From NCBI RefSeq assembly GCF_000007985.2, contig NC_002939.5:1710001-1742000 (forward strand): a DNA stretch of 32,000 nt, in the 5' to 3' direction. The notes below the pieces were generated by a model that was not told where the DNA came from, searched no databases, and saw only the letters and a program-made list of their open reading frames with translations. Within the stretch, counting starts at the first letter, position 1, and every line of letters starts with the position of its first letter. Position numbers and translations under genes: made by a program. This document shows, piece after piece, positions 352 through 18,927 of the stretch. This DNA comes from Geobacter sulfurreducens PCA (lineage in GTDB: Bacteria; Desulfobacterota; Desulfuromonadia; Geobacterales; Geobacteraceae).

Positions 352-1281
352 TCAGGGAAGGGGAATCAGGGGGATGGTACCCAGGTCGGTTGCCTGTCCG
401 GTCACCACGGAAACGGCTGAAGAGGAGTAGACCTGGAAGCCGTTGGTAGTGATGAATGCCTTGTACGTCACCGGCAGAGTGTTCGGCGGAACGAACGCCG
501 CAAAGGGGGCCTGCCACGCGCCGCCAGTGTAGTTACTGAAGATCAAGCCAGCGGCAATGGGATCGTTGTCGTTGGTTGATCCGCGGCGTTTTACCGACAC
601 CGTTGCGCTTGACCAGGGCATGAATGTCGACATGACGTTTCCGGAAATGGATCCGAACTGGGTAAGGGGATCGGACAGGTGCACGACGCGAATCCCCGTC
701 GGCTTCAGGTTGTAGTCGCCATTGCCCCTCGCAACGATGGCGGTATTGGGGTCGAAGTCTATCATGACCGCATTGATGACCCCGGCCCTGACTTCTACCG
801 GGCCAAGAACCTTAACCCCGGATTGCTGGCCGCTGGGAGTCGTCAGGGGGATCTGCGTGACGGGATCAGCCTTCAGGGTCAGGTAGTTTGCCGGTGCCGG
901 GTCGAGAACAAGCCGGATCTGGCTGTAGGCTCCCGCAGGGAGAACCGCCTCGCCCAGCGCTTCCTGCACGAACTGCAATTGCATCACGTCGATGACCCTG
1001 GATGGGGTGAATCGGGCGATCACCGGCAGGCCGGGGTCGTTGTCGGGCGCATTCTCCCTGCCCGCCGGCACGACACGTATTTCCCTGATGCTGATGATGA
1101 CCTTGTCGAACGAATCGCTCTGTTTGTCGGTAATGGAAAGTTTCAGGGTTCCCGTTGACGCCGCAGTGCTTGCCGATCCGCCATCCCCTCCGCCGCCGCA
1201 TCCGTGCATCAGCATCAGTGCCGCAAGCGCGGCGGCAAGAATCCCCAGTACTCCCATAGCTGACTTTTTCGCGCGTACCAT
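352..1281 (-). CDS. Lipoprotein-like secreted protein, DUF4382-like (family assignment tentative)
   Basis: Start chosen at the internal ATG 1281 (MVRAKKSAMGVLGILAAALAALMLMHGCGGGGDGG). AAAGGAG sits 6 nt upstream. Signal peptide ends in Cys followed by a Gly-rich linker. The segment TLKLSITDKQSDSFDKVIISIREIRVVP resembles DUF4382 beta-rich proteins. Confidence 0.75.
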   Translation of the reverse strand: MVRAKKSAMGVLGILAAALAALMLMHGCGGGGDGGSASTAASTGTLKLSITDKQSDSFDKVIISIREIRVVPAGRENAPDNDPGLPVIARFTPSRVIDVMQLQFVQEALGEAVLPAGAYSQIRLVLDPAPANYLTLKADPVTQIPLTTPSGQQSGVKVLGPVEVRAGVINAVMIDFDPNTAIVARGNGDYNLKPTGIRVVHLSDPLTQFGSISGNVMSTFMPWSSATVSVKRRGSTNDNDPIAAGLIFSNYTGGAWQAPFAAFVPPNTLPVTYKAFITTNGFQVYSSSAVSVVTGQATDLGTIPLIPLP

Positions 1282-1319
1282 TGTCCACTCCTTTCCCCGT
1301 TTCGTCTGGACATCCACGC

Positions 1320-1365
1320 AAAAAAAAACGGGATGCCGAATTTGTGGTGATAGTTCGGCATCCCG
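1320..1365 (-). terminator. Intrinsic terminator forming the expression platform of the GEMM-I candidate
   Basis: On the minus strand, CGGGAUGCCGAA (1365-1354) pairs with UUCGGCAUCCCG (1340-1329): a 12-bp perfect stem with a 13-nt loop, followed by U9 (1328-1320). It lies about 40 nt upstream of the lipoprotein start, and no upstream same-strand gene exists for it to terminate. Confidence 0.65.
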
Positions 1366-1435
1366 GCTGTCTCGGTGAGACCCTGTGGGCTTTCCGCCCC
1401 ATCCTCGCGGATGGTTTAGTAGTATCGTGTATCAC
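1347..1435 (-). ncRNA. Candidate GEMM-I riboswitch aptamer (c-di-GMP-I / 3'3'-cGAMP class)
   Basis: The minus-strand RNA reads GUGAUACACGAUACUACUAAACCAUCCGCGAGGAUGGGGCGGAAAGCCCACAGGGUCUCACCGAGACAGCCGGGAUGCCGAACUAUCAC. GUGAUA and UAUCAC form a closing stem. AAACC is followed by a 6-bp hairpin capped by the GNRA loop GCGA. GGCGGAAAGCC compares with consensus GACGCAAAGCC. A second hairpin is GUCUC-ACC-GAGAC. AGCCGGGAUGCCGAA compares with Vibrio Vc2 AGCGGGGUUACCGA. Aligned by eye only. Confidence 0.6.
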
Positions 1436-1451
1436 GCTCAGTTGTGAAGAA

Positions 1452-1479
1452 AGTCTAACCAGTGATATCTCGATGTCAA
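1452..1479 (-). promoter_or_regulatory. Putative sigma70-type promoter for the riboswitch-lipoprotein transcript
   Basis: Minus strand reads TTGACA (1479-1474), a 16-nt spacer, then TAGACT (1457-1452). It sits about 15 nt upstream of the aptamer 5' stem. Confidence 0.4.
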
Positions 1480-1576
1480 ACTGCGGCTTCACTGGACGGT
1501 GGCAGCCGGAGGGGATGGCATTTGCAGGGAATGACGATAGACTTGATTGGAATGGCTAACTTCAAGGAGGAATGGC

Positions 1577-2401
1577 ATGGACACCATGGGACAGTATCAG
1601 CAGCTGGTTGTCACGTATGCAACGGTAATCGGGACAAAGATCATCGCCGCCATTTTGTTCTGGGTTGTCGGCCGCTGGCTGATCCACCTGGTGCAGCGGA
1701 TGCTTCATCAGGTTCTGGAGAAGCAGAAAGTCGATCCCAGTCTGATGCGGTATCTGGGCAACTTCCTCGGAGTGGCTCTGAACATCGTGCTGGTGGTGGC
1801 GATACTCGGCTACTTCGGGGTGCAGACCACCACCTTCGCCGCATTGGTGGCCGGCGTCGGCATTGCCATTGGCGCTGCCTGGGGTGGGCTCCTTTCCAAC
1901 CTGGCGGCCGGGGCGTTCCTTCTGGTGTTGCGCCCCTTCAAGGTGGGGGATTTCGTCACCGCCGGAGGCATCACCGGCACCGTAAACGAGATAGGCCTCT
2001 TCGTGACCGCCATCAATACCCCTGACAATGTCATGACCATGGTGGGCAACGCCAAAATCTTCAACGATACGATCCAGAACTTTACCATCAATGACTATCG
2101 CCGAGTGGAACTGAAGTGCCAGCTGGCCGGAAGCGCCGATCACGTGGCAGCGATGGCGCTGCTGCGCGAGAAGCTCGCGACGGTGCCGAATGTGCTGACA
2201 ACGCCTGCGGTCGATGTGGAGATCCTCGACTTCACCCTGGTGGGTCCGGTGCTCGCCGTGCGCCCTTACTGTCACAACGACCATTACTGGCAAGTCTATT
2301 TCGACGGCAACCGGACGATACGCGAAGCCCTCGCCGCGGCGGGATTCCCTGCTCCCATGCCGGCCCAGGTGGTGCTGGTCCAGAGTCCGCAGGGGGGATG
2401 A
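1577..2401 (+). CDS. Small-conductance mechanosensitive channel (MscS family)
   Basis: ATG 1577 is preceded by AAGGAGG (1564-1570). Three N-terminal TM segments are followed by the MscS beta-domain signature LRPFKVGDFVTAGGITGTVNEIGLFVTAINTPDNVMTMVGNAKI. Confidence 0.9.
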   Translation: MDTMGQYQQLVVTYATVIGTKIIAAILFWVVGRWLIHLVQRMLHQVLEKQKVDPSLMRYLGNFLGVALNIVLVVAILGYFGVQTTTFAALVAGVGIAIGAAWGGLLSNLAAGAFLLVLRPFKVGDFVTAGGITGTVNEIGLFVTAINTPDNVMTMVGNAKIFNDTIQNFTINDYRRVELKCQLAGSADHVAAMALLREKLATVPNVLTTPAVDVEILDFTLVGPVLAVRPYCHNDHYWQVYFDGNRTIREALAAAGFPAPMPAQVVLVQSPQGG

Positions 2402-2465
2402 CCGGTCATGGTGCCTGGATAGACCGTTCATTGCCTCGGTGCGATTACTGCCCGACCAGGCTGCC

Positions 2466-2493
2466 TTGCGATCCGGCAATCCATCGCTATACT
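2466..2493 (+). promoter_or_regulatory. Putative sigma70-type promoter of the selenopeptide/rSAM cluster
   Basis: TTGCGA (2466-2471), a 16-nt spacer, then TATACT (2488-2493), about 60 nt upstream of ATG 2552. The leader contains a small hairpin ATCGGT-GCA-ACCGAT (2513-2527). Confidence 0.5.
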
Positions 2494-2551
2494 CACTGAA
2501 GTGGTTGTGCTGGATCGGTGCAACCGATGTCTCTGGGCGAGGAGGTAGCGT

Positions 2552-2908
2552 ATGGGTAAGGACAGGATGAAGCAGCTTCTGGCGGGACTCGGCATTGCGT
2601 CGCTGGTTGCCGGTGCCGGAGCCATGGGGCCCGGGCCGGCGCTTGGTACGAGCGGCTGAGGCAAGTCTTCCGGCGCCGGGAGCGCCAAGGAGAAGGCGAA
2701 GAGTGGCTGAGGCGGATCGTCCGGCGCCGGTGGCGCCGCAAAGAAGGATGCCGCAGCAGCCGAAGAGGTAAAGAAGGACCCCGCAGCCCCAGATGTGAAG
2801 AAGGATGCCGCATCCGATACGGCGGCCGACAAAGCTAAGAAGAAGGCCAAGAAAAAGAAGGCCGACAAGCCTGCGGAAAAGAAGACGGAAACACCTGCCA
2901 AGCAGTGA
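2552..2908 (+). CDS. Putative selenocysteine-containing precursor peptide (118 codons, in-frame TGA at 2657-2659 and 2708-2710 read as Sec)
   Basis: GGAGG (2541-2545) lies 6 nt before ATG 2552. Translation: MGKDRMKQLLAGLGIASLVAGAGAMGPGPALGTSG-U-GKSSGAGSAKEKAKSG-U-GGSSGAGGAAKKDAAAAEEVKKDPAAPDVKKDAASDTAADKAKKKAKKKKADKPAEKKTETPAKQ. The frame stays open for 16 and then 65 codons after the two TGAs, with host-like codon bias (16 of 18 tail Lys codons are AAG). A SECIS-like hairpin follows each TGA. A radical SAM/SPASM gene lies immediately downstream. The ORF track misses it because of the TGAs. Confidence 0.6.
2668..2692 (+). promoter_or_regulatory. SECIS-like hairpin 1 (candidate Sec recoding signal)
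   Basis: The upper stem pairs GGCGC (2672-2676) with GCGCC (2682-2686) around the loop CGGGA. The lower stem pairs UUCC (2668-2671) with GGAG (2689-2692), leaving an AA bulge. The GGCGC arm starts 12 nt after UGA 2657-2659. Confidence 0.45.
2722..2738 (+). promoter_or_regulatory. SECIS-like hairpin 2 (candidate Sec recoding signal)
   Basis: CGGCGC(C) (2722-2728) pairs with (G)GCGCCG (2732-2738) around an apical GGU (2729-2731). The GGCGC arm again starts 12 nt after UGA 2708-2710. Confidence 0.45.
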
Positions 2909-2926
2909 GAGTGGCAGGGATATCAC

Positions 2927-2971
2927 CGGAAACGGCGGTTCGCATCCCGAGGGGGTGATCCGCCGTTTCCG
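2927..2971 (+). promoter_or_regulatory. Strong intercistronic hairpin between precursor and maturase genes
   Basis: A 12-bp perfect stem pairs CGGAAACGGCGG (2927-2938) with CCGCCGTTTCCG (2960-2971), with a 21-nt loop. It begins 19 nt after the precursor stop. No U-tract follows. Confidence 0.5.
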
Positions 2972-2984
2972 CTCTCTGGTTCCC

Positions 2985-4400
2985 ATGACTCCCGACAAGA
3001 CTCTCCTTTCCAGTGACGATCGCAAGAATCTGCGCGCTGCACGGCGCCGGGTTGCCGCCATGGCCGATGCTGTGCCCTGCGATAGGGCACGGATACAGGT
3101 GAATCCCCGCCTTGAACTTGTTGCCGTATCCGTCCGTGATACGCCCTCGGAGGGAGTCCCGATGGGGAGCGGCTTCTGGGTGGTCTGGCGCGATCCCTCC
3201 GACGGTGCGGTGCGCTCGGAAGAGGCCGGACCGGCCGACCTGCTCGCCCTGAAGCTCGTCCTGGAGGAGAGGGATGCGGAGGATGCCGCCCGCGAGGCCG
3301 GGGTTCCGGTGGGGAGGATCGACGACTGCCTGTGGGGGGCTGCTGCCCGGGGGCTGATCATCATGCCCCCTTCACGCCTTCGTCGGCCGCCGTCCTGGCC
3401 GGTATCGGCAGAGAGCGAGGACTTGCTCGCGGCTCGGGTATTTACCCTCCAGTGGCACATCACTCAGGAGTGCGACCTCCACTGCCTCCATTGCTATGAC
3501 CGGACCAGCCAAGGTGTCTTTTCACTGCTCCGGGGGGTGGAACTGCTAGACGATCTCCGCAGGTTCTGCGCTGAGCGGTTCGTGCGGGGCCAGGTCTCCT
3601 TTACCGGCGGGAATCCCTTCCTGCACGCGGAGTTCGCGGCATTGTACGGTGCCGCCCTGGATCGTGGCCTGTCCGCCGCAATACTGGGAAACCCGGTGTC
3701 GCGCGAACAGCTCTTGGGCATCGTTGCCCTGGGGCGGCCGGTCTATTACCAGGTGAGTCTCGAAGGGCTGGAGGCCCACAACGATCACATCCGGGGGGCG
3801 GGCCATTTCAGGAGAACCCTTGCCTTTCTCGACCTGCTCCGGGAGGAGGGGATTCCCTGCGAGGTCATGCTGACCCTCACCCGGGACAATATGGACCAGG
3901 TCCTTGCCTTGGGGGAGATCCTGCGGGGCCGCGCCGACGCCTTCAGTTTCAACCGGCTGGCCCCCTTTGGCGAGGGGGCATCCCTGGCGTTGCCAGAACC
4001 CGCGGCATACGAGGCGTTCTTTGATCGGTATGTGGCGGCCATGGAGGAAAACCCGGTCCTTGCCCTGAAGGACAATCTGCTCAATCTGGCGCTCTCCCTC
4101 CGGGGGCGCGTGCTGTTCGACGGTTGCGCCGGTTTCGGCTGCGGCGCCGCGTTTAACTTCCTTTCCGTGCTTGCCGACGGACAGGTCCACGCCTGCCGCA
4201 AGTTTCCGTCACCCATCGGGTCGGTCCACGGGTCCTCCCTGTCCGAGCGCTACGATTCCCCCGCAGCCGAGCGATATCGGTCACGGAGCCTGGCCTGCGA
4301 GGGCTGTCGGCTCTACTCCCGGTGCGGCGGCTGCCCGGCAGTAACTGCCGGCCTCGGGCTGGACCCTCTCCGTGACCGTGATCCCTTCTGTTTCCGGTAA
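2985..4400 (+). CDS. Radical SAM/SPASM domain peptide maturase with N-terminal extension
   Basis: CxxxCxxC cluster motif in WHITQECDLHCLHCYD. C-terminal SPASM-type cysteines occur in CAGFGCGAAFNFLSVLADGQVHACRKF and CEGCRLYSRCGGCPAV. About 150 aa precede the core, including a winged-helix/RRE-like stretch ADLLALKLVLEERDAEDAAREAGVPVGRIDDCLWGAAARGLII. The start is set at the first ATG after the precursor stop. RBS is poor, so the start is uncertain (GTG 2955 is an alternative). Confidence 0.85.
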   Translation: MTPDKTLLSSDDRKNLRAARRRVAAMADAVPCDRARIQVNPRLELVAVSVRDTPSEGVPMGSGFWVVWRDPSDGAVRSEEAGPADLLALKLVLEERDAEDAAREAGVPVGRIDDCLWGAAARGLIIMPPSRLRRPPSWPVSAESEDLLAARVFTLQWHITQECDLHCLHCYDRTSQGVFSLLRGVELLDDLRRFCAERFVRGQVSFTGGNPFLHAEFAALYGAALDRGLSAAILGNPVSREQLLGIVALGRPVYYQVSLEGLEAHNDHIRGAGHFRRTLAFLDLLREEGIPCEVMLTLTRDNMDQVLALGEILRGRADAFSFNRLAPFGEGASLALPEPAAYEAFFDRYVAAMEENPVLALKDNLLNLALSLRGRVLFDGCAGFGCGAAFNFLSVLADGQVHACRKFPSPIGSVHGSSLSERYDSPAAERYRSRSLACEGCRLYSRCGGCPAVTAGLGLDPLRDRDPFCFR

Positions 4401-4569
4401 TCATCCCGCCACGCCTCCACTTGACATCCTTCAGCGAAGAATATACCGTTTTGCGGTGTTTCTCTTTCGTCACAAACCACGCACGTGCCACCGTCACAGC
4501 TGCGGCAGGGCTGCACAGCCGGCGGACGTCCCGTGCAATCGGGTAATATTGTCTGCAAGGATAGATGTG

Positions 4570-6558
4570 ATGTCAAACCTGCTGTATGGCCTGACCCTGT
4601 TCATCGTCGTTGCCCTGACCCTGGCATCCCCGGCCGGGGCCCAGGATGCCATCGCCACTCATCCAATCCAGCCCGCCGGCTATTCTTCCATAAAGGTTTT
4701 CGACCGTAACGGCCGGTTTGCGGGCCGGATTCTTCCCGAAAAGCGCTACTGGGTTCCCATCGACCGCATCCCTGCCTTCCTGCAGAAGGCGGTTGTGGCG
4801 GTGGAGGATGCCCGCTTCTACGAGCATAGCGGCATCGATGTGCGGGGTATCGCCCGTGCCCTGGTGAAGGACGTGGTCAAGGGGCGGCTGGCCGAGGGTG
4901 GCTCGACCATTACCCAGCAGCTGATCAAGAACAAGTATCTCTCCGGCGAGAAGAGCATCGAGCGCAAACTGGAAGAAGCCCGGCTGGCAATGGACTACGA
5001 GAAGAAATACAGCAAGAAGCAGATCCTTGAGATGTATTTCAATGAAATTTACTACGGCCGGGGAGCCTGGGGGATCGCCCAGGCGGCCCGCGTCTACTTC
5101 GACAAGAACCCTGAGGAACTGACCGAGGCCGAATGCGCCCTGCTGGCGGGCGTGCCCAAAAATCCGGGCCGCTACAATCCGTTGGGCAAGGCGGCTGACG
5201 TGGGGCGGCGCAGGGACGTGGTCCTCAAGCGGATGACGGACCTCAATATGATTTCCGCCCGGCAGAAGCAGAAGCTGCGCAGCCAGCGGGTGGCCGTTAC
5301 CCCGCCGGACCAGGCATCGTGGTATCTGGCCCATATCCGGAACCTGCTGGTGGAGCGGTACGGCCCCCAGGTCATCGAGGCGGGGGGACTGGAAGTGACA
5401 GCGGCCATGGATCTGAACCTGCAGAAACTAGCCGAAAAGACCCTGCGGGAAGGGGTGAAGCGGGTTTCGCCCGACCTTCAGGGAGCGCTGATGTCCCTGG
5501 ATCCCGCCACTGGCGATGTACTGGCGGCCGTGGGGGGCGTGGACTTCGCCAAGAGCTCCTATGACCGGGCATTCCTGGCGCGGCGCCAGCCCGGCTCGGC
5601 AATAAAGCCCCTGATCTATGCGGCTGCCCTGGAAAAGGGGATCACTGCCGCGAGCGTCTGGGATGATTCCCCGGTTGCCTACGTCCGCGGCGCCAACCAA
5701 ACCTGGAAGCCCAGGAACTACGGCGGCGAGCAGTACGGGGAACTTTCCCTGAGGAAGGCCCTGGCCTACTCGAACAACGTCATCACAGTCAAGGTGCTGG
5801 AGACGATCGGCGTTCCCTACTTCGTGGAGATTGCCAGGAATCTGGGACTGTCGCTCCGATCGCCCAACGACCTCTCGCTGGCCCTGGGCACCGACGAGGT
5901 GACCCTGCGTGATCTCGTTTCGGCGTACACCCCCCTGGCCAACGGAGGACTCCGGGCCGAAGCCAGGACCGTGCTCCGGATCTACGACAAGCGCCGTCGC
6001 GCCTGGACCGACAATCCGCCGGCCGTCACTCAGGCCATCTCGCCCGCCGCGGCCTATGTCACGACCCAGATGCTCAAGGACGTGATGGTGTACGGCACGG
6101 CCAAGTCGCTCAGGAAGTTCAGCCAGGCCCGGCCGGCCGCCGGCAAGACCGGCACCACCGACGATTACCGGGACGCTTGGTTCATCGGCTATACTCCGGG
6201 TGTCGTTACCGGCATCTGGGTCGGCCACGACAAGCCCAGGCCGGGAGGGAAAGGGTTCACGGGGGGTACCGTGGCCGCGCCCATCTGGGAGCGGTTCATG
6301 GGACCGGCCCTGTCCGGTCGGCCGGCCGCCGACTTCGCCCGGCCGGAAACGGTCGTTGCCGTGACCGTGGACCCTGCCACGGGATACCGGGCAGCGCCGG
6401 AGTGCCCGGAACAGCGGGAAGAATTATTTATTGCCGGCACTGAGCCGGTCGCATACTGCCCTGCCCACGGCGGGGAGCTCCTGATGCCCGAATCGCCCGA
6501 TCTGCCGGTGCCGGAAGGGGAAACCCGGGAGCCTGCGGCCACCGACAATCCGATGTGA
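4570..6558 (+). CDS. mrcA: Class A penicillin-binding protein (PBP1A-type transglycosylase/transpeptidase)
   Basis: AAGGA lies 8 nt before ATG 4570. The N-terminus is MSNLLYGLTLFIVVALTLASPAGA. GT51 motifs are EDARFYEHSGID and GGSTITQQL. Transpeptidase motifs are SAIKP (SxxK), SNN (SxN) and KTGTT (KTG). Confidence 0.9.
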   Translation: MSNLLYGLTLFIVVALTLASPAGAQDAIATHPIQPAGYSSIKVFDRNGRFAGRILPEKRYWVPIDRIPAFLQKAVVAVEDARFYEHSGIDVRGIARALVKDVVKGRLAEGGSTITQQLIKNKYLSGEKSIERKLEEARLAMDYEKKYSKKQILEMYFNEIYYGRGAWGIAQAARVYFDKNPEELTEAECALLAGVPKNPGRYNPLGKAADVGRRRDVVLKRMTDLNMISARQKQKLRSQRVAVTPPDQASWYLAHIRNLLVERYGPQVIEAGGLEVTAAMDLNLQKLAEKTLREGVKRVSPDLQGALMSLDPATGDVLAAVGGVDFAKSSYDRAFLARRQPGSAIKPLIYAAALEKGITAASVWDDSPVAYVRGANQTWKPRNYGGEQYGELSLRKALAYSNNVITVKVLETIGVPYFVEIARNLGLSLRSPNDLSLALGTDEVTLRDLVSAYTPLANGGLRAEARTVLRIYDKRRRAWTDNPPAVTQAISPAAAYVTTQMLKDVMVYGTAKSLRKFSQARPAAGKTGTTDDYRDAWFIGYTPGVVTGIWVGHDKPRPGGKGFTGGTVAAPIWERFMGPALSGRPAADFARPETVVAVTVDPATGYRAAPECPEQREELFIAGTEPVAYCPAHGGELLMPESPDLPVPEGETREPAATDNPM

Positions 6559-6571
6559 CAAGGAGGCGTGC

Positions 6572-6871
6572 ATGAACGTGATGGTTGATCTGTGCATCGT
6601 GCCGATCGGCGTGGGAGTTTCCCTTTCGCCTTACGTGGCGGCCTGTCAGAAGGTGCTTGACGAGGCGGGGCTCAAGACCTCGCTCCATTCCTACGGTACG
6701 AACATCGAGGGGGAGTGGGATGCCGTGTTCGCCGCCGTCAGGCGCTGCCACGAGGTGGTGCACGGGATGGGCGCGCCCCGCATCACCACCACCATCAAGC
6801 TGGGAACCCGCACGGACCGGGTCCAGACCATGGAGGACAAGGTGCGGAGCGTTCAGGAGAAGATGGGGTAG
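6572..6871 (+). CDS. MTH1187/YkoF-like (UPF0045, thiamine-binding type) small protein
   Basis: AGGAGG lies 5 nt upstream of the start. The 99-aa sequence MNVMVDLCIVPIGVGVSLSPYVAACQKVLDEAGLK...GTNIEGEWD is typical of this family. Confidence 0.8.
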   Translation: MNVMVDLCIVPIGVGVSLSPYVAACQKVLDEAGLKTSLHSYGTNIEGEWDAVFAAVRRCHEVVHGMGAPRITTTIKLGTRTDRVQTMEDKVRSVQEKMG

Positions 6872-6915: not shown

Positions 6916-9888
6916 ATGAATGCTGCCGGAGCAGCCGGAAGGACCCATACTGCGGAACGGGCGGAGAACCGCCGGTGGCTCCGCGAGCAGATGAATCCCT
7001 ACTTCTTCATTGCCATGAAGGACGAGCCCGAGGCCCTGGCCGTCCTGACCCGCGAACTGGGCATGCTGCGGCGCAACAAGCGCCTGATCCTGGCCGACCG
7101 GGACAAGGCCTTGATCGTTGCCATGGTCAATCAGCCGGGCACCCTGTACGAGACCCTGCGCCGGATCCAGGAGCGGGAGATATCTTACGCCATGATCGCC
7201 CACTCGGACGACCCGATCCCCGGGCTTGACCAGAACCTGGAGATCCAGCGTTTCGAGTTCGACCGCAAGACCAACGATGACATCCTCGCCGGCAGGGACG
7301 TGCAGGTGCCGTTGGGCATCCGGCGCACGGTGGCGGCGGCGGTGCGGAAATACTACCCGGACTTCGATCTGGCCGATCTGGACCGGCTGCTCCGCATCCT
7401 CTGGCTCAACAACGAGAACTATGTCCGCATCTCCCCCCCCCGCAGGGTGGCCCAGGTGCTGCGGCTTCACCAGGAAGGAAACCGTTGCGGCGGCCTCTAC
7501 CTGGACGTGGAGGAGATGGAGAACGGTACGGCCGGCAACGAATCGCGGGTCTTCTTTGCCGTGGGGAACCCCCCCCAGAAGGATTTCCTCCTCCAGGTGA
7601 TGGAGGTTTTCAACCGGCTCGAACTGGGCGTGAACCGCGCCTATTGCCTGACCATCTCCAACGGCATCCATCCCTATTTCCTCGGGACGTTCTATGTGCG
7701 GCGGCGCGACGGAGAAGTGCTGCAGCGGGGGTCCGAGCTCTTCAGCAGGCTCCAGCGGGAACTGTCCAATACCCAACTCTTGGCGACCCGCTCCCATGCC
7801 TACCGCGAGTTCGTGATCACCGGACTCATGAGCGGCGAGGACGCCACCCTCACCAATGCCTTCATCGCCTTCTGTCATTCCAACCTGGCCCACAACCAGC
7901 CCGACCGCTTCGGCCTTGACGACGTGCGCGGCGCCTTCCTGGCCCACCCCGAGATCGCGCTGCAGCTGGCAAAGCTCTTCCGGGCCCGTTTCGACCCGGC
8001 CGTGGAGGGCCGGGCCGAGCTCTACGAGCGGGTGCTGGCCGAAACCCGGCGTGAGGTGGCGGATTACAACACCGGCCACCGCTACCTGGACGAGGTGCGC
8101 AGGACCATCTTCCACTGCTGCCTCACTTTCATCACCCGCACCCTGAAGACCAACTTCTTCGTGCTGGAGAAACAGGCCCTGGCCTTCCGGCTCGACCCCG
8201 CCTACCTGACCGAGCTGGGTACTGATTTTACCGCCGACCTGCCTCCGGCCATGCCCTTCCGAGTCACCTTTTTCTTCAGCCGCTTCGGATTCGGTTACCA
8301 CATCGGTTTCTCCGACATCGCCCGGGGAGGGTGGCGCACGGTCATCTGCCGTACCCCCGACGACCTGGTCACCAACGCCAATACCCTGTTCCGGGAGAAC
8401 TTCGTTCTGGCTCACACCCAGCACCTGAAGAACAAGGACATTTACGAGGGGGGCTCGAAGCTGGTGGTGGCCCTGGATGCCTCGGACCTGAAAGCGAAGG
8501 ACCGGCCCCTGGAGACCTGGCGCCTCTACAAGCTCCAGTACGGCATCACCGGCGCCTTCCTGGATATTTTTACCACCGACAACGGCGTGGCCCGGCATCC
8601 GGCAGTGGTGGACTACTACCGGGAGGACGAGCCCATCGAGCTCGGCCCCGACGAGAACATGCACGACAACATGATCGAGACCATCGCCTGGATGTCGAAA
8701 CGGCGCGGCTACATGCTCGGCATCGGGATCATGTCCAGCAAGCGGGTGGGGATCAACCACAAGGAGTACGGCGTCACCTCCACCGGCGTAGTGGCGTTCG
8801 CCGAGATCACGATGGCGGAGCTGGGCATCGACATCCGGCGGGATCCGTTCACCGTCAAGTTCACCGGCGGTCCCAACGGCGACGTGGCAGGGAACGCCCT
8901 CCGGATCATGCTGGAGCGCTGCCCCAAGGTGAAAATCGGCCTGATCCTCGACGGTACGGCGGCCCTGTGCGACCCCGAGGGCGCGGATCACGGTGAGCTG
9001 GGCCGCATCCTGCTGAAGGAGGACCTGGATGCCTTTGATCCGGCGGCGCTCCATCCGGGCGGGTTCATGCTGTTCCGCACCGGCAGCCGGCGCGAGGGGC
9101 TGCGGGAGCTTTTCCGGCGCGTGATCAAAACCGATGCGGGGCTCGTGGAGGAGTGGATCTCACTGGACGAATTCTCCAAGGAGTTCGGCGAGTTGATATT
9201 CAGCGTGCCGGCGGATCTCTTCATCCCCGCCGGCGGGCGCCCGGAAACAATCGATAAGGACAATTGGGACCAATTCCTCCTGCCTGACGGCACCCCGTCG
9301 GCCAGGGCCATCGTGGAAGGGGCCAACTCTTTCATCACCCCGCCGGCCCGCGTGGAGCTCCAGAAGAAGGGGATCATCGTCATGCGCGACGCCTCTGCCA
9401 ACAAGTGCGGCGTCATTTCTTCATCCTACGAGATCATCGCCAACCTGCTCCTGACGGAGAAGGAATTCATGGAGCACAAGGAGCGCTACGTGGCCGACGT
9501 GCTCCGGATTCTGGAAAAGCGGGCCGGCGACGAGGCCCGGCTGATCCTGAAGCGCCGCCGGGAGCAGCCGGGAACCCTGTGCACCGAGATATCGGACTCC
9601 CTGAGCACCGAGATCAACGCCAATTATGCACGGCTCTTCAGATTCTTCCAGGCCCGCCCTGAGCTCTGCCTGCAGCCTCTCTACCGCCGGGCGATTCTGG
9701 CGCACCTGCCCAAGATCATTGCCGAGGAAGCCCGTTTCCGCCGCCGCCTCACCCAACTGCCCCAGAAGTACCTGTCTGCCATTCTCGCCGCGGAGATCGG
9801 CTCGTCCATGGTCTATCGCGGCGACCGGGAAACCGAGTTCGAGGACATGATCAAGCTCCACCTGATGCGCAGTTTTTCGGCTATATAG
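6916..9888 (+). CDS. Large (~990 aa) NAD-glutamate-dehydrogenase-like protein (Glu/Leu/Phe/Val dehydrogenase superfamily)
   Basis: GAGGAG lies upstream of ATG 6916. There is a Lys/Gly-rich catalytic-like segment NKDIYEGGSKLVV, a dinucleotide-fold-like segment FTGGPNGDVAGNALR, and ANKCGVISSSYE. The size matches the large GDH classes. The call is by resemblance only. Confidence 0.7.
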   Translation: MNAAGAAGRTHTAERAENRRWLREQMNPYFFIAMKDEPEALAVLTRELGMLRRNKRLILADRDKALIVAMVNQPGTLYETLRRIQEREISYAMIAHSDDPIPGLDQNLEIQRFEFDRKTNDDILAGRDVQVPLGIRRTVAAAVRKYYPDFDLADLDRLLRILWLNNENYVRISPPRRVAQVLRLHQEGNRCGGLYLDVEEMENGTAGNESRVFFAVGNPPQKDFLLQVMEVFNRLELGVNRAYCLTISNGIHPYFLGTFYVRRRDGEVLQRGSELFSRLQRELSNTQLLATRSHAYREFVITGLMSGEDATLTNAFIAFCHSNLAHNQPDRFGLDDVRGAFLAHPEIALQLAKLFRARFDPAVEGRAELYERVLAETRREVADYNTGHRYLDEVRRTIFHCCLTFITRTLKTNFFVLEKQALAFRLDPAYLTELGTDFTADLPPAMPFRVTFFFSRFGFGYHIGFSDIARGGWRTVICRTPDDLVTNANTLFRENFVLAHTQHLKNKDIYEGGSKLVVALDASDLKAKDRPLETWRLYKLQYGITGAFLDIFTTDNGVARHPAVVDYYREDEPIELGPDENMHDNMIETIAWMSKRRGYMLGIGIMSSKRVGINHKEYGVTSTGVVAFAEITMAELGIDIRRDPFTVKFTGGPNGDVAGNALRIMLERCPKVKIGLILDGTAALCDPEGADHGELGRILLKEDLDAFDPAALHPGGFMLFRTGSRREGLRELFRRVIKTDAGLVEEWISLDEFSKEFGELIFSVPADLFIPAGGRPETIDKDNWDQFLLPDGTPSARAIVEGANSFITPPARVELQKKGIIVMRDASANKCGVISSSYEIIANLLLTEKEFMEHKERYVADVLRILEKRAGDEARLILKRRREQPGTLCTEISDSLSTEINANYARLFRFFQARPELCLQPLYRRAILAHLPKIIAEEARFRRRLTQLPQKYLSAILAAEIGSSMVYRGDRETEFEDMIKLHLMRSFSAI

Positions 9889-10837: not shown

Positions 10838-10940
10838 GTAAAGGGGAGTAGTTATCGGCACCAGAAAATGCCGACCCGGTTTCGTCATTACGGTCGAAGG
10901 ACCCGGAACCGGGGCAGATATCTGCCAACAAGACCTTTAT
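10838..10940 (+). ncRNA. Candidate yybP-ykoY (Mn2+) riboswitch aptamer
   Basis: The hallmark 5' element is GUAAAGGGGAGUAG (10838-10851). The matching 3' element is AACAAGACCUUUA (to 10939; consensus AGCAAGACCUUU). P1.1 pairs UAAAGG with CCUUUA, and P1.2 pairs GUU with AAC. Internal hairpins are UCGGCA/UGCCGA and GGCAG-AUAU-CUGCC. Confidence 0.7.
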
Positions 10941-10975
10941 CCAGGCATATGCCGGGGGTAAAGGTCTTTTTTATT
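10930..10975 (+). terminator. Intrinsic terminator competing with riboswitch P1
   Basis: AAGACCTTTA (10930-10939, the 3' strand of the aptamer P1/L1) is perfectly complementary to TAAAGGTCTT (10959-10968), which is followed by TTTTATTA. Aptamer closure and terminator are mutually exclusive, which predicts an ON switch. Confidence 0.65.
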
Positions 10976-11011
10976 ACCCCCGGCGATAGCAAATCGTCGG
11001 AGGTAATGACA

Positions 11012-11872
11012 ATGAACAGGCTCAAGACAACCCTTCTCCTCTCCCTGCTGACCGTTCTCATGGTCCTCATGGGCAGTGCCCTGGGCGGCAAGTCCGGTAT
11101 GATCACGGCTTTTGTCATAGCCCTTGGCATGAACTTCTTCTCCTACTGGTTTTCCGACAAGATCGTCCTCAAGATGTACGGAGCCCGCGAGGTCGACGAG
11201 CACGACCATCCGCAGTTCTACGGCATGGTTCGCCGCCTGGCCCTTCAGGCGGGGCTCCCCATGCCCAAGGTCTACATCATCCCGTCCGACAGCCCCAACG
11301 CCTTTGCCACGGGAAGGAATCCGCAGCATGCCGCCGTAGCCGCGACAGAAGGCATCTTGCGGATTCTGTCGCCGGATGAACTCGAAGGGGTAATGGCCCA
11401 TGAACTTGCCCACGTCCAGAACCGGGACATCCTGGTGGGAACCATTGCCGCCACCTTCGCCGGTGCAATCTCCATGATCGGCAACATGCTCCAGTGGGGC
11501 GCCATGCTCGGCGTCGGCAGAAACGACGACGAGGAGGGGGGCGCCGGCGGCCTGATGGGTTCGCTGGTCATGGCCATTGTCGCACCCATGGCGGCCATGC
11601 TGATCCAGATGGCGGTCTCGCGCTCCCGGGAGTACCTGGCGGACGAAACCGGCGCAAGGATCTGCGGCAGACCACTGGCACTGGCCAATGCCCTGCGCAA
11701 ACTCCATGTCGCATCTCACAGCATACCCATGCAGGAGGCCAGACCGGCCTCAGCACACATGTTCATCGTTAATCCACTGACCGGGGGCAGCCTCCTCTCC
11801 CTCTTCTCGACCCACCCGCCAATGGAGGAGCGGATTGCCCGGCTTGAAGCGATGTCCAGAACATCAAGGTAA
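11012..11872 (+). CDS. htpX: Zinc metalloprotease HtpX
   Basis: GGAGG (10999-11003) lies 8 nt before ATG 11012. The N-terminus [21 protein letters not shown] is a TM segment. [10 protein letters not shown] provides the HExxH motif. The C-terminus [13 protein letters not shown] is typical of HtpX. Confidence 0.9.
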
Positions 11873-12698: not shown

Positions 12699-13643
12699 AT
12701 GGCAACATCAACGATATTATGGGGAGGGTTCATACTGCTGGTGGTCATTATGCTGGCCGTTGACCTCGGGATGAACCGCAAGAGTCATAGGGTATCCTTT
12801 AAGGAGGCCCTCGGCTGGAGCATCCTCTGGGTCGGCCTGGCACTGGCCTTCAACGTGGGGATATACTTCGTGTTGGGCCAACAGAAGGCCCTGGAGTTCC
12901 TGACCGGCTACCTGATTGAAAAATCCCTGTCCGTTGACAACCTGTTCGTGTTCATCATGATATTCACGGTCTTCGGGGTTCGCGGCGAACTGCAGGCCCG
13001 GGTGCTGAAGTGGGGTATCCTGGGTGCCCTGATAATGCGGGTAGTTTTCATCTTTCTCGGGGCTGAACTGCTGGAGCGTTTCCAGTGGCTTTTCTACATC
13101 TTCGGTGCAGTGCTGATCTATACAGCCTCCAAGATGGCATTTGGCGCCAGCGAAGAAATGGACCCGGACAAGAATCTCATGGTGAGGTTGGCGCGCAAGG
13201 TTCTGCCCATGACCCGGAAGATCCGTGGCGACTGGTTCTTCACCCGCCGATTGGGCCTCTGGGTTGCCAGTCCGCTATTCATGGTTCTTCTCGTGGTTGA
13301 GAGCAGCGACCTTGTCTTTGCGCTCGATTCGATACCGGCCATCTTTGCCATCACCCTTGACCCCTTTATCGTGCTCACGTCCAACGTGTTTGCCATCATG
13401 GGGCTACGGGCCTTGTATTTCCTGCTGGCAGAAGTAATGGGAATGTTTGCCTATCTGAAGTACGGGATATCATTCATTCTGGCTTTTGTCGGCATAAAGA
13501 TGATTCTGATTATGCTTGGAGTACATATTCCCATTGCCATATCCCTTGGGGTTATCGTCTTGAGTCTGGTAGTTGCCATGGGATTGTCTTTGCTGGCCAA
13601 CCGCATGGGGTATGCCAACAGGGTGTCCGGGGAGATTCCGTAG
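12699..13643 (+). CDS. TerC/Alx family integral membrane protein
   Basis: The protein has multiple TM segments. EFLTGYLIEKSLSVDNLFVFIMIF and the later SDLVFALDSIPAIFAIT are the duplicated TerC signature. Confidence 0.9.
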   Translation: MATSTILWGGFILLVVIMLAVDLGMNRKSHRVSFKEALGWSILWVGLALAFNVGIYFVLGQQKALEFLTGYLIEKSLSVDNLFVFIMIFTVFGVRGELQARVLKWGILGALIMRVVFIFLGAELLERFQWLFYIFGAVLIYTASKMAFGASEEMDPDKNLMVRLARKVLPMTRKIRGDWFFTRRLGLWVASPLFMVLLVVESSDLVFALDSIPAIFAITLDPFIVLTSNVFAIMGLRALYFLLAEVMGMFAYLKYGISFILAFVGIKMILIMLGVHIPIAISLGVIVLSLVVAMGLSLLANRMGYANRVSGEIP

Positions 13644-18852: not shown

Positions 18853-18927
18853 TGGTGGGCGCTACTGGGATTGAACCAGTGACCCCTGCCGTGTGAAGGC
18901 AGTGCTCTCCCGCTGAGCTAAGCGCCC
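18853..18927 (-). tRNA. tRNA-Val (anticodon CAC), CCA end encoded
   Basis: The reverse complement is GGGCGCTTAGCTCAGCGGGAGAGCACTGCCTTCACACGGCAGGGGTCACTGGTTCAATCCCAGTAGCGCCCACCA. The acceptor stem is 7 bp. The D arm is GCTC/GAGC. The anticodon stem is CTGCC/GGCAG with loop TTCACAC. The T arm is ACTGG-TTCAATC-CCAGT. Confidence 0.9.

Follow-up and report, generated by a model that had tools for sequence, protein, structure and literature searches.

In 2011, Haft predicted the SbtM "selenobiotic" family of radical SAM maturases, the biochemistry of which was established by the Bandarian laboratory (PMC9204691); the SbtA/SbtM system is already known, its chemistry having been predicted in 2011 and demonstrated in 2021. 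SbtM removes four hydrogens from a Gly-Cys or Gly-Sec unit to generate a thio(seleno)oxazole, a loss of 4 Da, through abstraction of a beta-hydrogen and closure of a ring with the carbonyl of the preceding Gly (PMC9204691; PMC11002830). The reaction yields absorbance at 304 nm, transfers deuterium from Cys C-beta to 5'-deoxyadenosine, involves three 4Fe-4S clusters, and takes place on SeCys as it does on Cys (PMC9204691; PMC11002830); the product has lost both beta-hydrogens, keeps an iodoacetamide-reactive chalcogen, and displays aromatic 13C signals (PMC9204691). The published model begins with an oxidation similar to that performed by anSME (PMC9204691), and the characterized enzyme is WP_083768621 (PMC11002830). 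The precursor SbtA is unrelated to the cyanobacterial bicarbonate transporter of the same name. Both the mature product and the biological role are unknown for most such clusters (PMC9204691).

A second group of peptides carries comparable heterocycles. The BufA peptides known as bufferins, on which the MNIO enzyme BufB acts together with BufC, its DUF2063 partner, contain Cys-derived thiooxazoles, and their precursors have Sec-type signal peptides in place of classical leaders (PMC12452194); once exported, bufferins sequester copper in the periplasm (PMC12452194). The identity of the heterocycle in related MNIO products, 5-thiooxazole or oxazolone-thioamide, has been debated. The modified SbtM substrate has been listed among the compounds absorbing at about 305 nm (302 to 305 nm) (PMC12668002; PMC12538549) and grouped with those that contain a 5-thiooxazole (PMC12668002).

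Identity and layout of the sbtA-sbtM locus

The window, by which we mean the whole 32,000-nt stretch of Geobacter sulfurreducens PCA DNA that was analyzed, contains an sbtA/sbtM pair that, as judged from sequence, is very probably a two-gene RiPP cassette of the thio(seleno)oxazole type (Table 1). The enzyme encoded at 2985-4400 matched NCBIfam TIGR04082, the curated equivalog model for "thio(seleno)oxazole modification radical SAM maturase SbtM," with 610.9 bits (E 2e-183; cutoff 350), residues 15 to 470 aligning with profile positions 50 to 516, and residues 1 to 27 of the adjoining peptide matched TIGR04081, the model for the SbtA precursor, with 38.2 bits against a cutoff of 30.5. An earlier note on this DNA had described a RiPP-type radical SAM/SPASM maturase serving the adjoining Sec peptide, and both matches, each above its cutoff, bear out that description; the note had named membership in a family of known nonpeptide function as refuting its reading, and TIGR04082 is a peptide-modifying family. 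Its proposal of novel enzymology is ruled out by the 2011 prediction, by the Bandarian characterization (PMC9204691), and by the naming of the exact gene in databases. The 531-aa open reading frame at 2805-4400, which contains sbtM, is 100% identical to G. sulfurreducens AAR34934.2, a gene that public databases name SbtM or "selenobiotic family" maturase, and other members of its cluster go by SbtM or selenobiotic maturase. What had been proposed as "novel selenium chemistry" has been published already and the locus counts as explained; our comparative observations on the cassette are incremental and do not constitute a discovery.

All features tested agree with the SbtM/SbtA system represented by TIGR04082 and TIGR04081, so that the G. 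sulfurreducens pair is the same system: the order of domains, an adjoining Sec precursor with the G-U-G motif, SECIS hairpins, and the restriction to two genes are held in common. The differences are small. G. sulfurreducens SbtM lacks the first 49 or so positions of the TIGR04082 profile (a minor variant), whereas some members, including that of Trichlorobacter lovleyi (52% sequence identity), have an extra N-terminal segment, and in G. sulfurreducens SbtA, the two Sec residues precede a Lys/Ala-rich tail of 65 residues that does not end in a further Sec unit. Relatives are found in at least 571 species-level genomes from several phyla. The characterized WP_083768621 was not matched to any homologue found here, and no experiments on the G. 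sulfurreducens SbtA and SbtM proteins were found in the literature searched; the thio(seleno)oxazole chemistry is assigned to G. sulfurreducens SbtM by family membership.

Table 1. Features of the sbtA-sbtM region (window coordinates)
Feature	Position	Strand	Basis or comment
Sigma-70-like promoter candidate (TTGCGA, 16-nt spacer, TATACT)	2466..2493	+	Consensus match, 9/12; upstream of sbtA
Shine-Dalgarno sequence GAGGAGG	2539..2545	+	Read from sequence; 6 nt ahead of the sbtA ATG
sbtA precursor gene	2552..2908	+	Translation, 118 codons and stop at 2906-2908; TIGR04081
First UGA, putatively read as Sec (codon 36, T-S-G-U-G-K)	2657..2659	+	Translation, hairpin
SECIS-like hairpin 1 (GGCGC CGGGA GCGCC)	2672..2686	+	Starts 15 nt after the U of UGA
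Second UGA, putatively read as Sec (codon 53, K-S-G-U-G-G)	2708..2710	+	Translation, hairpin
SECIS-like hairpin 2 (GGCGCC GGU GGCGCC)	2723..2737	+	Comparison of UGA sites
Intercistronic stem-loop, 12-bp outer stem	2927..2971	+	RNA fold; between sbtA and sbtM
sbtM, predicted thio(seleno)oxazole-forming radical SAM/SPASM maturase	2985..4400	+	471 aa, stop at 4398-4400; TIGR04082
RRE-like core of the N-terminal domain (residues 37 to 122)	3093..3350	+	AlphaFold2 prediction, three strands then three helices
CxxxCxxC radical SAM cluster motif (C163, C167, C170)	3471..3494	+	CDLHCLHC in sequence; invariant in 74 homologues
SPASM region, eight invariant Cys	4125..4391	+	Pfam SPASM and TIGR04085 matches; 74-sequence alignment
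Terminator-like hairpin, T-rich tail	4443..4469	+	Consensus match; 43 nt past the sbtM stop

The start of sbtM at 2985 is backed by the alignment of homologues and by 471-aa RefSeq versions. The 531-aa reading frame, starting at 2805, was considered as the true protein and rejected: its first 60 residues have no counterpart in homologues and correspond to the sbtA tail in an alternative frame plus the intergenic spacer. The sbtA gene ends 77 nt ahead of the sbtM start, and the RNA of 2900-2990 folds with -41 kcal/mol (z = -2.86; 1 of 200 shuffles folds as well); in related loci, too, the spacer between sbtA and sbtM commonly contains a strong hairpin. A consensus scan of 2300-4700 found two promoter-like sites against 0.3 expected in shuffles.

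Of 80 related loci, 65 have a confidently recognized SbtA-like leader adjoining sbtM, in 57 cases upstream and on the same strand, and the adjacency of peptide and enzyme, which the earlier note had proposed to check across relatives, is therefore conserved. The pair is flanked upstream by a gene for MscS and downstream by one for a penicillin-binding protein of the PBP1A family, neither of which encodes a peptidase or an ABC exporter, and no third conserved gene (protease, exporter, or Sec machinery) was found within 5 kb on either side in 81 loci, where the commonest neighbor cluster occurred in 9. The earlier remark that no leader peptidase or ABC exporter adjoins the pair was thus correct and, since no third gene is conserved, the missing protease or exporter is a trait of the family.

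Putative selenocysteine codons of the precursor

In SbtA, a leader that resembles a signal peptide (residues 1 to about 32) is followed by two S-G-U-G units and then by a tail rich in Lys, Ala, and Asp. The translation contains no Cys, and codons 36 and 53 are in-frame TGA, in agreement with the prior reading of the two Sec as the sole Cys-like residues of the putative core. Pfam returned no match to the SbtA peptide; in a 96%-identical G. sulfurreducens genome, sbtA is called as a 35-aa product that carries PF27804 (GSU1558_StbA-like). Related SbtA peptides have 1 to 5 [G/S]-U-[G/S] units each, set in cores of Gly/Ser/Ala-rich repeats, in which the sole conserved feature is this unit followed by a SECIS-encoded GAG[G/S]. 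Cys takes the place of Sec at some orthologous sites, for example, in the second S-G-U-G unit of loci L003 and L004 (KSG-C-GGS and KTG-C-GGS), and in about six loci, the precursor has Cys at all such sites.

Of the 157 distinct UGA sites in related loci, 125 (80%) have a hairpin of at least 6 bp just past them, where mononucleotide shuffles lead one to expect 22.8; loop centers lie at +22 or +25 nt, with 34 distinct inner stem sequences; at Cys codons in the same motif, which served as a control, a hairpin was present at only 4 of 27 sites (15%). In the 96%-identical genome, the 5' arm of hairpin 2 reads GGUGCC, and the pair is kept as G-U. Minimum-energy folds of the single 60-nt sequences after each UGA were like those of shuffles (z = +0.5 and -1.25), and no Rfam family covered the SECIS hairpins or the intergenic stem-loop, either in the whole window at gathering thresholds or in 1250-3100 at an E value of 1 or less; the hairpins are convincing because they were compared across 157 sites. 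From these hairpins and their conservation throughout the family, we infer Sec insertion in SbtA itself: sbtA would be translated through two UGA codons as Sec, and the SECIS hairpin about 15 nt past each UGA would direct the insertion.

If the UGA codons were instead plain stops, translation would yield a selenium-free peptide of 35 aa, and the substrate of the radical SAM enzyme would be something else. Public gene calls do end SbtA at 35 aa, the SbtA HMM spans residues 1 to 27 only, and none of selA, selB, selC, and selD lies in the window, the Sec machinery of G. sulfurreducens being something that we take to be present. Such termination is hard to reconcile with SECIS-like hairpins at a fixed distance after four-fifths of UGA sites but rarely after equivalent Cys codons, with the alternation of Sec and Cys at orthologous sites, or with a reading frame that is kept past both UGAs, even across a 6-nt in-frame indel that lies downstream of both in a comparison of two G. 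sulfurreducens genomes; moreover, without read-through there would be no repeated [G/S]-U-[G/S] units. We therefore give termination at the UGA codons almost no credence and retain the reading of both as Sec.

The maturase and its predicted chemistry

The canonical CDLHCLHC motif and the Cys-rich SPASM C terminus that had been recognized in SbtM were both upheld by Pfam, which placed Radical_SAM at residues 159 to 307 (E 2e-13) and SPASM at residues 386 to 441 (E 1.2e-5), and by an alignment of 74 sequences, in which the Cys residues concerned are invariant; those of the C terminus are C381, C386, C404, C438, C441, C447, C450, and C469, arranged in the patterns C386-x12-G399-x4-C404 and CxxCx5CxxC. 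The AlphaFold2 model of full-length SbtM (pLDDT 89.4) found its best PDB matches in the peptide maturases SuiB, CteB, and SkfB, with alignments of 424 to 456 columns, followed by PqqE and anSME. Over the full length, the closest structures are those of the RRE-containing maturases SuiB (streptide; 5v1q/5v1s/5v1t) and CteB (ranthipeptide; 5wgg/5why), with E about 3e-16 over 447 to 458 aligned columns; they share with SbtM the order of an N-terminal domain (peptide-binding in both, putatively so in SbtM), a radical SAM barrel, and SPASM; sequence identity is, however, 16 to 19%, the N-terminal domain of SbtM has no sequence similarity to theirs, and the chemistry differs, SuiB forming a Lys-Trp C-C crosslink and CteB a Cys-to-Thr thioether. 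The anSME structures (PDB 4k36 and 4k39) align with the SbtM model with TM-scores of 0.53 to 0.67 (0.53 when normalized to the query, 0.66 when normalized to the target). Both enzymes combine a radical SAM core with a SPASM domain carrying two auxiliary clusters, and both abstract a beta-hydrogen from peptidyl Cys, but anSME has no N-terminal RRE-like domain and performs a single two-electron oxidation to formylglycine with loss of the sulfur, whereas SbtM carries out two oxidations and keeps S or Se in an oxazole ring.

The residues ahead of the radical SAM core of SbtM (1 to 150) are conserved across the family. In the full-length model, strands are predicted at 43-50, 62-69, and 76-80 and helices at 83-93, 98-105, and 109-122, the same strands and helices appear in a model of the domain only, and pLDDT exceeds 90 over most of residues 61 to 130. 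The strand-strand-strand-helix-helix-helix order fits the winged-helix fold of PqqD-like RiPP recognition elements (RREs), and the full-length structural alignments to SuiB and CteB span the N-terminal domains of those enzymes. Foldseek with the isolated domain gave no match at an E value of 0.001 or less; its weak matches were TglHI chain A (E 0.02 to 0.04, probability 0.97; PDB 8hi7 and 8hci, where the output does not state whether the chain is TglH or TglI), TbiB1 (E 0.36), and MccB (E 1.0), and since these matches to RRE entries are weak, we do not claim RRE membership. Pfam had no match to residues 1 to 150 at an E value of 10 or less, and a PDB sequence-profile search with the domain found no RRE protein at the same threshold; its sole match, VirB9 (E 0.7), was dismissed as chance. 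Thus, of the proposal that the N-terminal extension is RRE-like, the predicted three-strand/three-helix order stands, whereas sequence similarity to RREs is absent from both the Pfam and PDB profile searches, and the assignment, which rests on topology and weak fold matches, is tentative.

We suggest that the three-strand/three-helix domain docks the conserved SbtA leader. The [4Fe-4S] cluster bound by CxxxCxxC would cleave SAM, and the resulting 5'-deoxyadenosyl radical would take a beta-hydrogen from Sec, the selenium of which is probably bound by a SPASM auxiliary cluster during the abstraction. Next, the carbonyl oxygen of the Gly ahead of Sec may attack the resulting selenoaldehyde-like intermediate, and a second SAM-dependent oxidation would aromatize the ring to a 5-selenooxazole, with a net loss of four hydrogens per site.

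Two other outcomes of chemistry at the Sec residues have to be weighed. SbtM could crosslink Sec to the carbon of an acceptor residue as a selenoether, by analogy with the Cys crosslinks that sactipeptide and ranthipeptide synthases make; the RRE-like/radical SAM/SPASM architecture is common to such synthases, the ranthipeptide synthase CteB is among the best structural matches, and SbtM has weak HMM matches to StsB, AlbA, and PapB, which mature sactipeptides and ranthipeptides. These scores fall far below the respective cutoffs (48.9 versus 625, 39.9 versus 850, and 45.1 versus 340), whereas that of TIGR04082 is exceeded by 260 bits; no acceptor position is conserved in SbtA cores, where the only conserved unit is G/S-U-G/S; and a change of -4 Da with loss of both beta-hydrogens and an alkylatable chalcogen is incompatible with a thioether or selenoether (PMC9204691). 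Alternatively, the enzyme could stop at an anSME-like step, converting Sec or Cys into a seleno- or thioaldehyde that is hydrolyzed to formylglycine with no heterocycle, in keeping with the clear structural relationship to anSME (PDB 4k36 and 4k39) and with the anSME-like oxidation that starts the published model (PMC9204691). The family product, however, keeps S or Se, loses four hydrogens rather than two, and shows aromatic 13C signals (PMC9204691), and no anSME equivalog is present among the best 25 of the 42 NCBIfam families matched at an E value of 0.01 or less. We regard the crosslink and the early stop as very improbable, each to the same degree. Of the selenium chemistries raised in the earlier note, Sec oxidation is close to the published mechanism, and the selenoether gives way to the thio(seleno)oxazole that was reported as the product (PMC9204691; PMC11002830).

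Leader, probable export, and possible role of SbtA

SbtA leaders have 1 to 5 Lys or Arg residues (mostly 2 to 4) in the first 12 positions, followed by an uncharged stretch of 14 to 28, and a lipobox-like Cys occurs at about residues 28 to 30 in at least 24 of 66 SbtA peptides. The basic start and long uncharged stretch agree with the previous description of the precursor N terminus as signal-peptide-like, and on this pattern, the leader resembles the signal peptides of Sec substrates or of lipoproteins. Once modified, SbtA is probably exported and cleaved by signal peptidase, and export by means of such a signal peptide would explain why the cassette needs no protease or transporter of its own.

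The resemblance to bufferins extends beyond the leaders, as the modified SbtM substrate has the same absorbance at about 305 nm (PMC12668002; PMC12538549). Bufferins are modified by an enzyme of an unrelated class, with multinuclear iron and a dependence on O2, in contrast to the anaerobic radical SAM enzyme SbtM, and bufferins use Cys where SbtA uses Sec. We suggest, tentatively and as a possibility rather than an expectation, that SbtA is a polypeptide exported by the Sec pathway, lipid anchored in many lineages, whose selenooxazoles bind metal in the periplasm, and not a small diffusible "selenobiotic." The handles on its role are the signal-peptide/lipobox leader, the strict two-gene cassette, the wide spread, and the SECIS hairpins that dictate GAG[G/S].

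If this suggestion is correct, the SbtA leader would both be recognized by the SbtM N-terminal domain and serve as a signal peptide, and export with a leader of such dual function would account for the constant absence of a protease or exporter from the cassette. SbtA would then be the radical-SAM-made, selenium-containing counterpart of the copper-sequestering bufferins, and two unrelated enzyme classes would have converged on the same heterocycle, installed on substrates that bear signal peptides.

Identity and organization of the sbtA-sbtM pair

The two plus-strand genes that make up the region are already known, a textbook case of a curated family. SbtM scored 610.9 bits against the NCBIfam model TIGR04082, "thio(seleno)oxazole modification radical SAM maturase SbtM" (curated cutoff, 350); the second-best model, that of the ACGX-system radical SAM family, gave 150.6 bits (cutoff, 400), and the sactipeptide and ranthipeptide models of the same collection scored far under their cutoffs. 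SbtA, scanned with C in place of U, passed TIGR04081 (38.2 bits; cutoff, 30.5). AAR34934.2 of Geobacter sulfurreducens is 100% identical to a mechanical ORF of 531 amino acids that opens at 2805, and other proteins in its cluster bear the names SbtM or "selenobiotic family peptide radical SAM maturase." The gene order is shared by another G. sulfurreducens genome, 96% identical in DNA at the locus (DUF4382, MscS, a 35-amino-acid product carrying PF27804 GSU1558_StbA-like, the radical SAM gene, PBP1A, thiamine-binding protein, and GDH). Scores, identity, and shared order thus define the pair as a G. sulfurreducens member of the family predicted by Haft in 2011 (PMC9204691), and it is in this model organism that the peptide family is named.

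With U at the in-frame TGA codons, SbtA reads MGKDRMKQLLAGLGIASLVAGAGAMGPGPALGTSG-U-GKSSGAGSAKEKAKSG-U-GGSSGAGGAAKKD...PAKQ and contains no cysteine, leaving the two Sec as the sole Cys-like residues, as the earlier note had proposed. Its description of the enzyme was also accurate: SbtM carries the CDLHCLHC motif (C163, C167, and C170), Pfam Radical_SAM and SPASM domains, eight C-terminal Cys that are invariant among 74 homologues, and about 150 residues N-terminal to the radical SAM core that match no Pfam family. Its cluster-binding residues are thus intact. A start at 2805 was rejected: the first 60 residues of the 531-amino-acid ORF are the sbtA tail and intergenic spacer in an alternative frame and have no counterpart in homologues, and the start was therefore placed at 2985, giving the form used in some RefSeq versions. 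Public annotation of the locus is inconsistent (2805-2984 in the window; 2736-2843 in the related locus L081): G. sulfurreducens records give sbtM products of 412, 418, 471, 481, 492, 529, 531, and 539 amino acids, the long ones taking in the sbtA tail in another frame, and sbtA is annotated as a 35-amino-acid product ending at the first UGA.

Features of the window by position
Feature	Position	Strand	Remark
DUF4382 ORF	352-1317	-	product N terminus lipoprotein-like
GEMM-I (c-di-GMP-I) riboswitch aptamer	1353-1430	-	40.4 bits; gathering score, 35
Promoter-like site	2466-2493		consensus match only
sbtA	2552-2908	+	GAGGAGG ribosome-binding site 6 nt before start
First in-frame TGA	2657		
First G-A-G-[G/S] motif site	2666-2686		
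SECIS-like hairpin 1	2672-2686	+	GGCGC CGGGA GCGCC
Second in-frame TGA	2708		
Second G-A-G-[G/S] motif site	2717-2737		
SECIS-like hairpin 2	2723-2737	+	GGCGCC GGU GGCGCC
Intergenic stem-loop	2927-2971		very stable
sbtM	2985-4400	+	471 aa
Terminator-like hairpin	4443-4459		consensus match only
PBP1A-family penicillin-binding protein	4570-6558		
MTH1187-family thiamine-binding protein	6572-6871		
Large glutamate dehydrogenase-like ORF	6916-9888		990 aa
HtpX	10868-11872		
TerC/Alx membrane protein	12699-13643		
tRNA-Val(CAC)	18853-18927	-	

The putative promoter and terminator would bracket the two-gene unit. Between sbtA and sbtM, positions 2900-2990 fold at -41 kcal/mol (z = -2.9), and the spacers of most related loci hold hairpins of comparable strength; the stem-loop may act as an attenuator or stabilize the transcript and so set how much precursor is made relative to enzyme. 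Housekeeping genes surround the pair, and selA, selB, selC, and selD are absent from the 32,000-nt window. The GEMM-I aptamer lies upstream of the DUF4382 gene; in a permissive scan, the GGC-variant model scored 38.3 bits at this site, under its gathering score of 59.

Conserved pairing and probable recoding of UGA

Relatives were located in no fewer than 571 species-level genomes, including metagenome-assembled genomes labeled Nitrospirota, Brocadiaceae/Brocadiia, Acidobacteria, Lentisphaerae, and Leptospirales and others labeled as the Candidatus genera Tantalella and Erginobacter (among the loci compared, L008, L033, L034, L036, L040, L051, L061, L074, and L076). The earlier note had called for an examination of neighborhood conservation, and the pairing proved to be conserved: an HMM built from leader sequences (E <= 1e-4) found an SbtA-like leader in 65 of the best 80 loci. 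On the sbtM strand, 57 of these lie upstream and 5 downstream, and the remaining 3 are encoded opposite; in 6 of the 15 loci lacking a confident leader, the sequence available upstream was shorter than 600 nt. When all ORFs of at least 90 amino acids within 5 kb on either side of sbtM were clustered across 81 loci, no conserved third gene emerged, the commonest neighbor family being present in 9. The cassette thus comprises two genes, and the absence of an adjacent protease or exporter, correctly observed before, characterizes the family as a whole rather than this genome. L057 has two tandem sbtA genes (5109-5351 and 5460-5762) before a single sbtM, and L063 and L077 are separate, nearly identical cassettes that share a chromosome (CAXXIG010000003.1) and lie 1.7 Mb from each other.

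The peptides contain one to five [G/S]-U-[G/S] units, and about six loci have Cys-only precursors. Sec and Cys alternate at some orthologous sites, for example KSG-U-GGS in L002 and KSG-C-GGS in L003, a pattern classically diagnostic of genuine selenoprotein genes. SECIS hairpins (at least 6 bp, with a loop of 3 to 7 nt) accompany 125 of 157 distinct UGA contexts, against 22.8 expected from mononucleotide shuffles, but only 4 of 27 equivalent Cys codons of the peptide motif, used as controls; in 2 of those 4, it is the hairpin that lies past the stop codon. Loop centers cluster at +22 and +25 nt, the commonest loops being AGGUA, AGGUG, CGGGA, GGU, and GGUC, and the inner stems comprise 34 different sequences, so that pairing has been kept despite sequence change. 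A 6-nt indel that distinguishes the two G. sulfurreducens genomes lies 3' of both UGAs and keeps the frame. Sec would be expected at these codons in G. sulfurreducens.

The G-A-G-[G/S] motif a few residues past each Sec, here and in related loci L001-L080, is the translated GC-rich SECIS stem (GGC GCC GGN ...); Cys-type precursors (e.g., L019, L022, L036, and L076) have neither hairpin nor motif. The motif probably reflects an RNA rather than a protein constraint. Many precursors end in ...S-G-U-G-G-x-K and a stop (L010, L015, L033, L048, L052, L054, L057, L059, and others), and the hairpin of their last Sec spans or falls beyond the stop codon, which is not where a bacterial SECIS usually lies; the TAG stop is often within the stem, as in AAAUAGUGC...GCACUAU. 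In L038, L040, L055, L056, L062, L063, and L077, several precursors end in ...K-S-G-U-S-U-S or tandem UGA; Sec and real stop are hard to tell apart there, and the peptide C terminus is therefore ambiguous.

Chemistry and the N-terminal domain of SbtM

Haft described sbtM as colocalized with a peptide gene having a stop codon and, after it, a selenocysteine insertion sequence, and later annotation extended the peptide to include two or more SeCys in a conserved Gly-flanked motif (PMC9204691). In vitro, a Cys or SeCys substrate loses 4 amu, hydrogen from the Cys beta-carbon passes to 5'-deoxyadenosine, and the product, which gives aromatic 13C signals and can still be alkylated, has a chromophore at 304 nm that is red-shifted by 9 nm in the Se form; Fe/S content is sufficient for three 4Fe-4S clusters (PMC9204691). 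A 2024 review gives the same account (PMC11002830), and recent papers on multinuclear iron enzymes (MNIO) list the modified substrate among compounds absorbing at about 305 nm (302 to 305 nm) (PMC12668002, PMC12538549), one placing it with 5-thiooxazole-containing compounds (PMC12668002). By this literature on the family, the window's enzyme would abstract a beta-hydrogen, remove four hydrogens to yield a selenooxazole, and hold three clusters. Of the chemistries on selenium envisaged in the earlier note, Sec oxidation comes close to the published mechanism, whereas a selenoether crosslink is unsupported, the family product being alkylatable, aromatic, and 4 amu lighter (PMC9204691); nor is the enzymology novel, having already been published (PMC9204691, PMC11002830). 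The observation is thus confirmed and its interpretation partly supported.

AlphaFold2, with a 74-sequence alignment, modeled SbtM with confidence, at a pLDDT of 89.4 and a pTM of 0.90. The N-terminal domain (helix 10-25; strands 43-50, 62-69, and 76-80; helices 83-93, 98-105, and 109-122) has the three-strand, three-helix order of an RiPP recognition element (RRE). The top structural matches of the full model were SuiB, CteB, and SkfB (E about 1e-14 to 3e-16), the SuiB and CteB alignments covering 447 to 458 columns with N-terminal domains included; PqqE and anSME came next, aligned over the catalytic part only. For the domain modeled alone (residues 1-150; pLDDT 85.2), no PDB entry reached E <= 0.001. 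The best fold match, a weak one, was chain A of the TglHI holoenzyme, which may be either TglH or TglI (E 0.02-0.04; probability 0.97-0.98), followed by the lasso-peptide RRE TbiB1 (E 0.36) and MccB (E 1.0). TglHI joins an RRE-bearing partner to an MNIO enzyme; apart from SbtM, the known makers of thiooxazoles are MNIO systems. The partner, TglI, has its RRE domain at the C terminus (PMC10880893). Sequence methods found no RRE similarity in the SbtM domain; on the structural model, an RRE-like role is plausible, in which it would bind the SbtA leader.

The SbtA leader as a candidate export signal

Among 66 distinct peptides, residues 1-12 contain one to five Lys/Arg, mostly two to four, followed by an uncharged stretch of 14 to 28 residues. 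At least 24 of the 66 leaders end in a lipobox-like motif (L/V-x-G/A-C; e.g., LPGC, LSGC, or VAGC) whose Cys falls near residues 28 to 30 (L006, L010, L015, L017, L021, L034, L040, L044, L048, L054, L063, and others), a lower bound, since the pattern missed likely cases such as GIGC and TVGC. This Cys lies outside the G-x-G context of modified residues, and even peptides with Sec at every modified position retain it as Cys, as would be expected of a site of lipidation more than of a substrate site. The lipobox-like ending suggests that in these lineages the modified product is a lipoprotein. Geobacter-type leaders, including the window's Cys-free ...AGAGAMGPGPALG-TSG-U, end in small residues, as for signal peptidase I. 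Export would proceed through the Sec pathway, with cleavage by signal peptidase.

Bufferins, the thiooxazole-bearing, periplasmic copper-binding RiPPs made by MNIO enzymes, contain a signal peptide suspected of forming part of the recognition sequence (PMC12452194). They are a documented precedent for RiPPs with a signal peptide; the likeness of the SbtA leader is one of sequence pattern only. From this precedent and that pattern, we infer that SbtA may be a bufferin counterpart, exported to the periplasm, where its selenooxazoles would bind metal. The residual value of the locus lies in the role of the mature selenooxazole product, together with small comparative observations.
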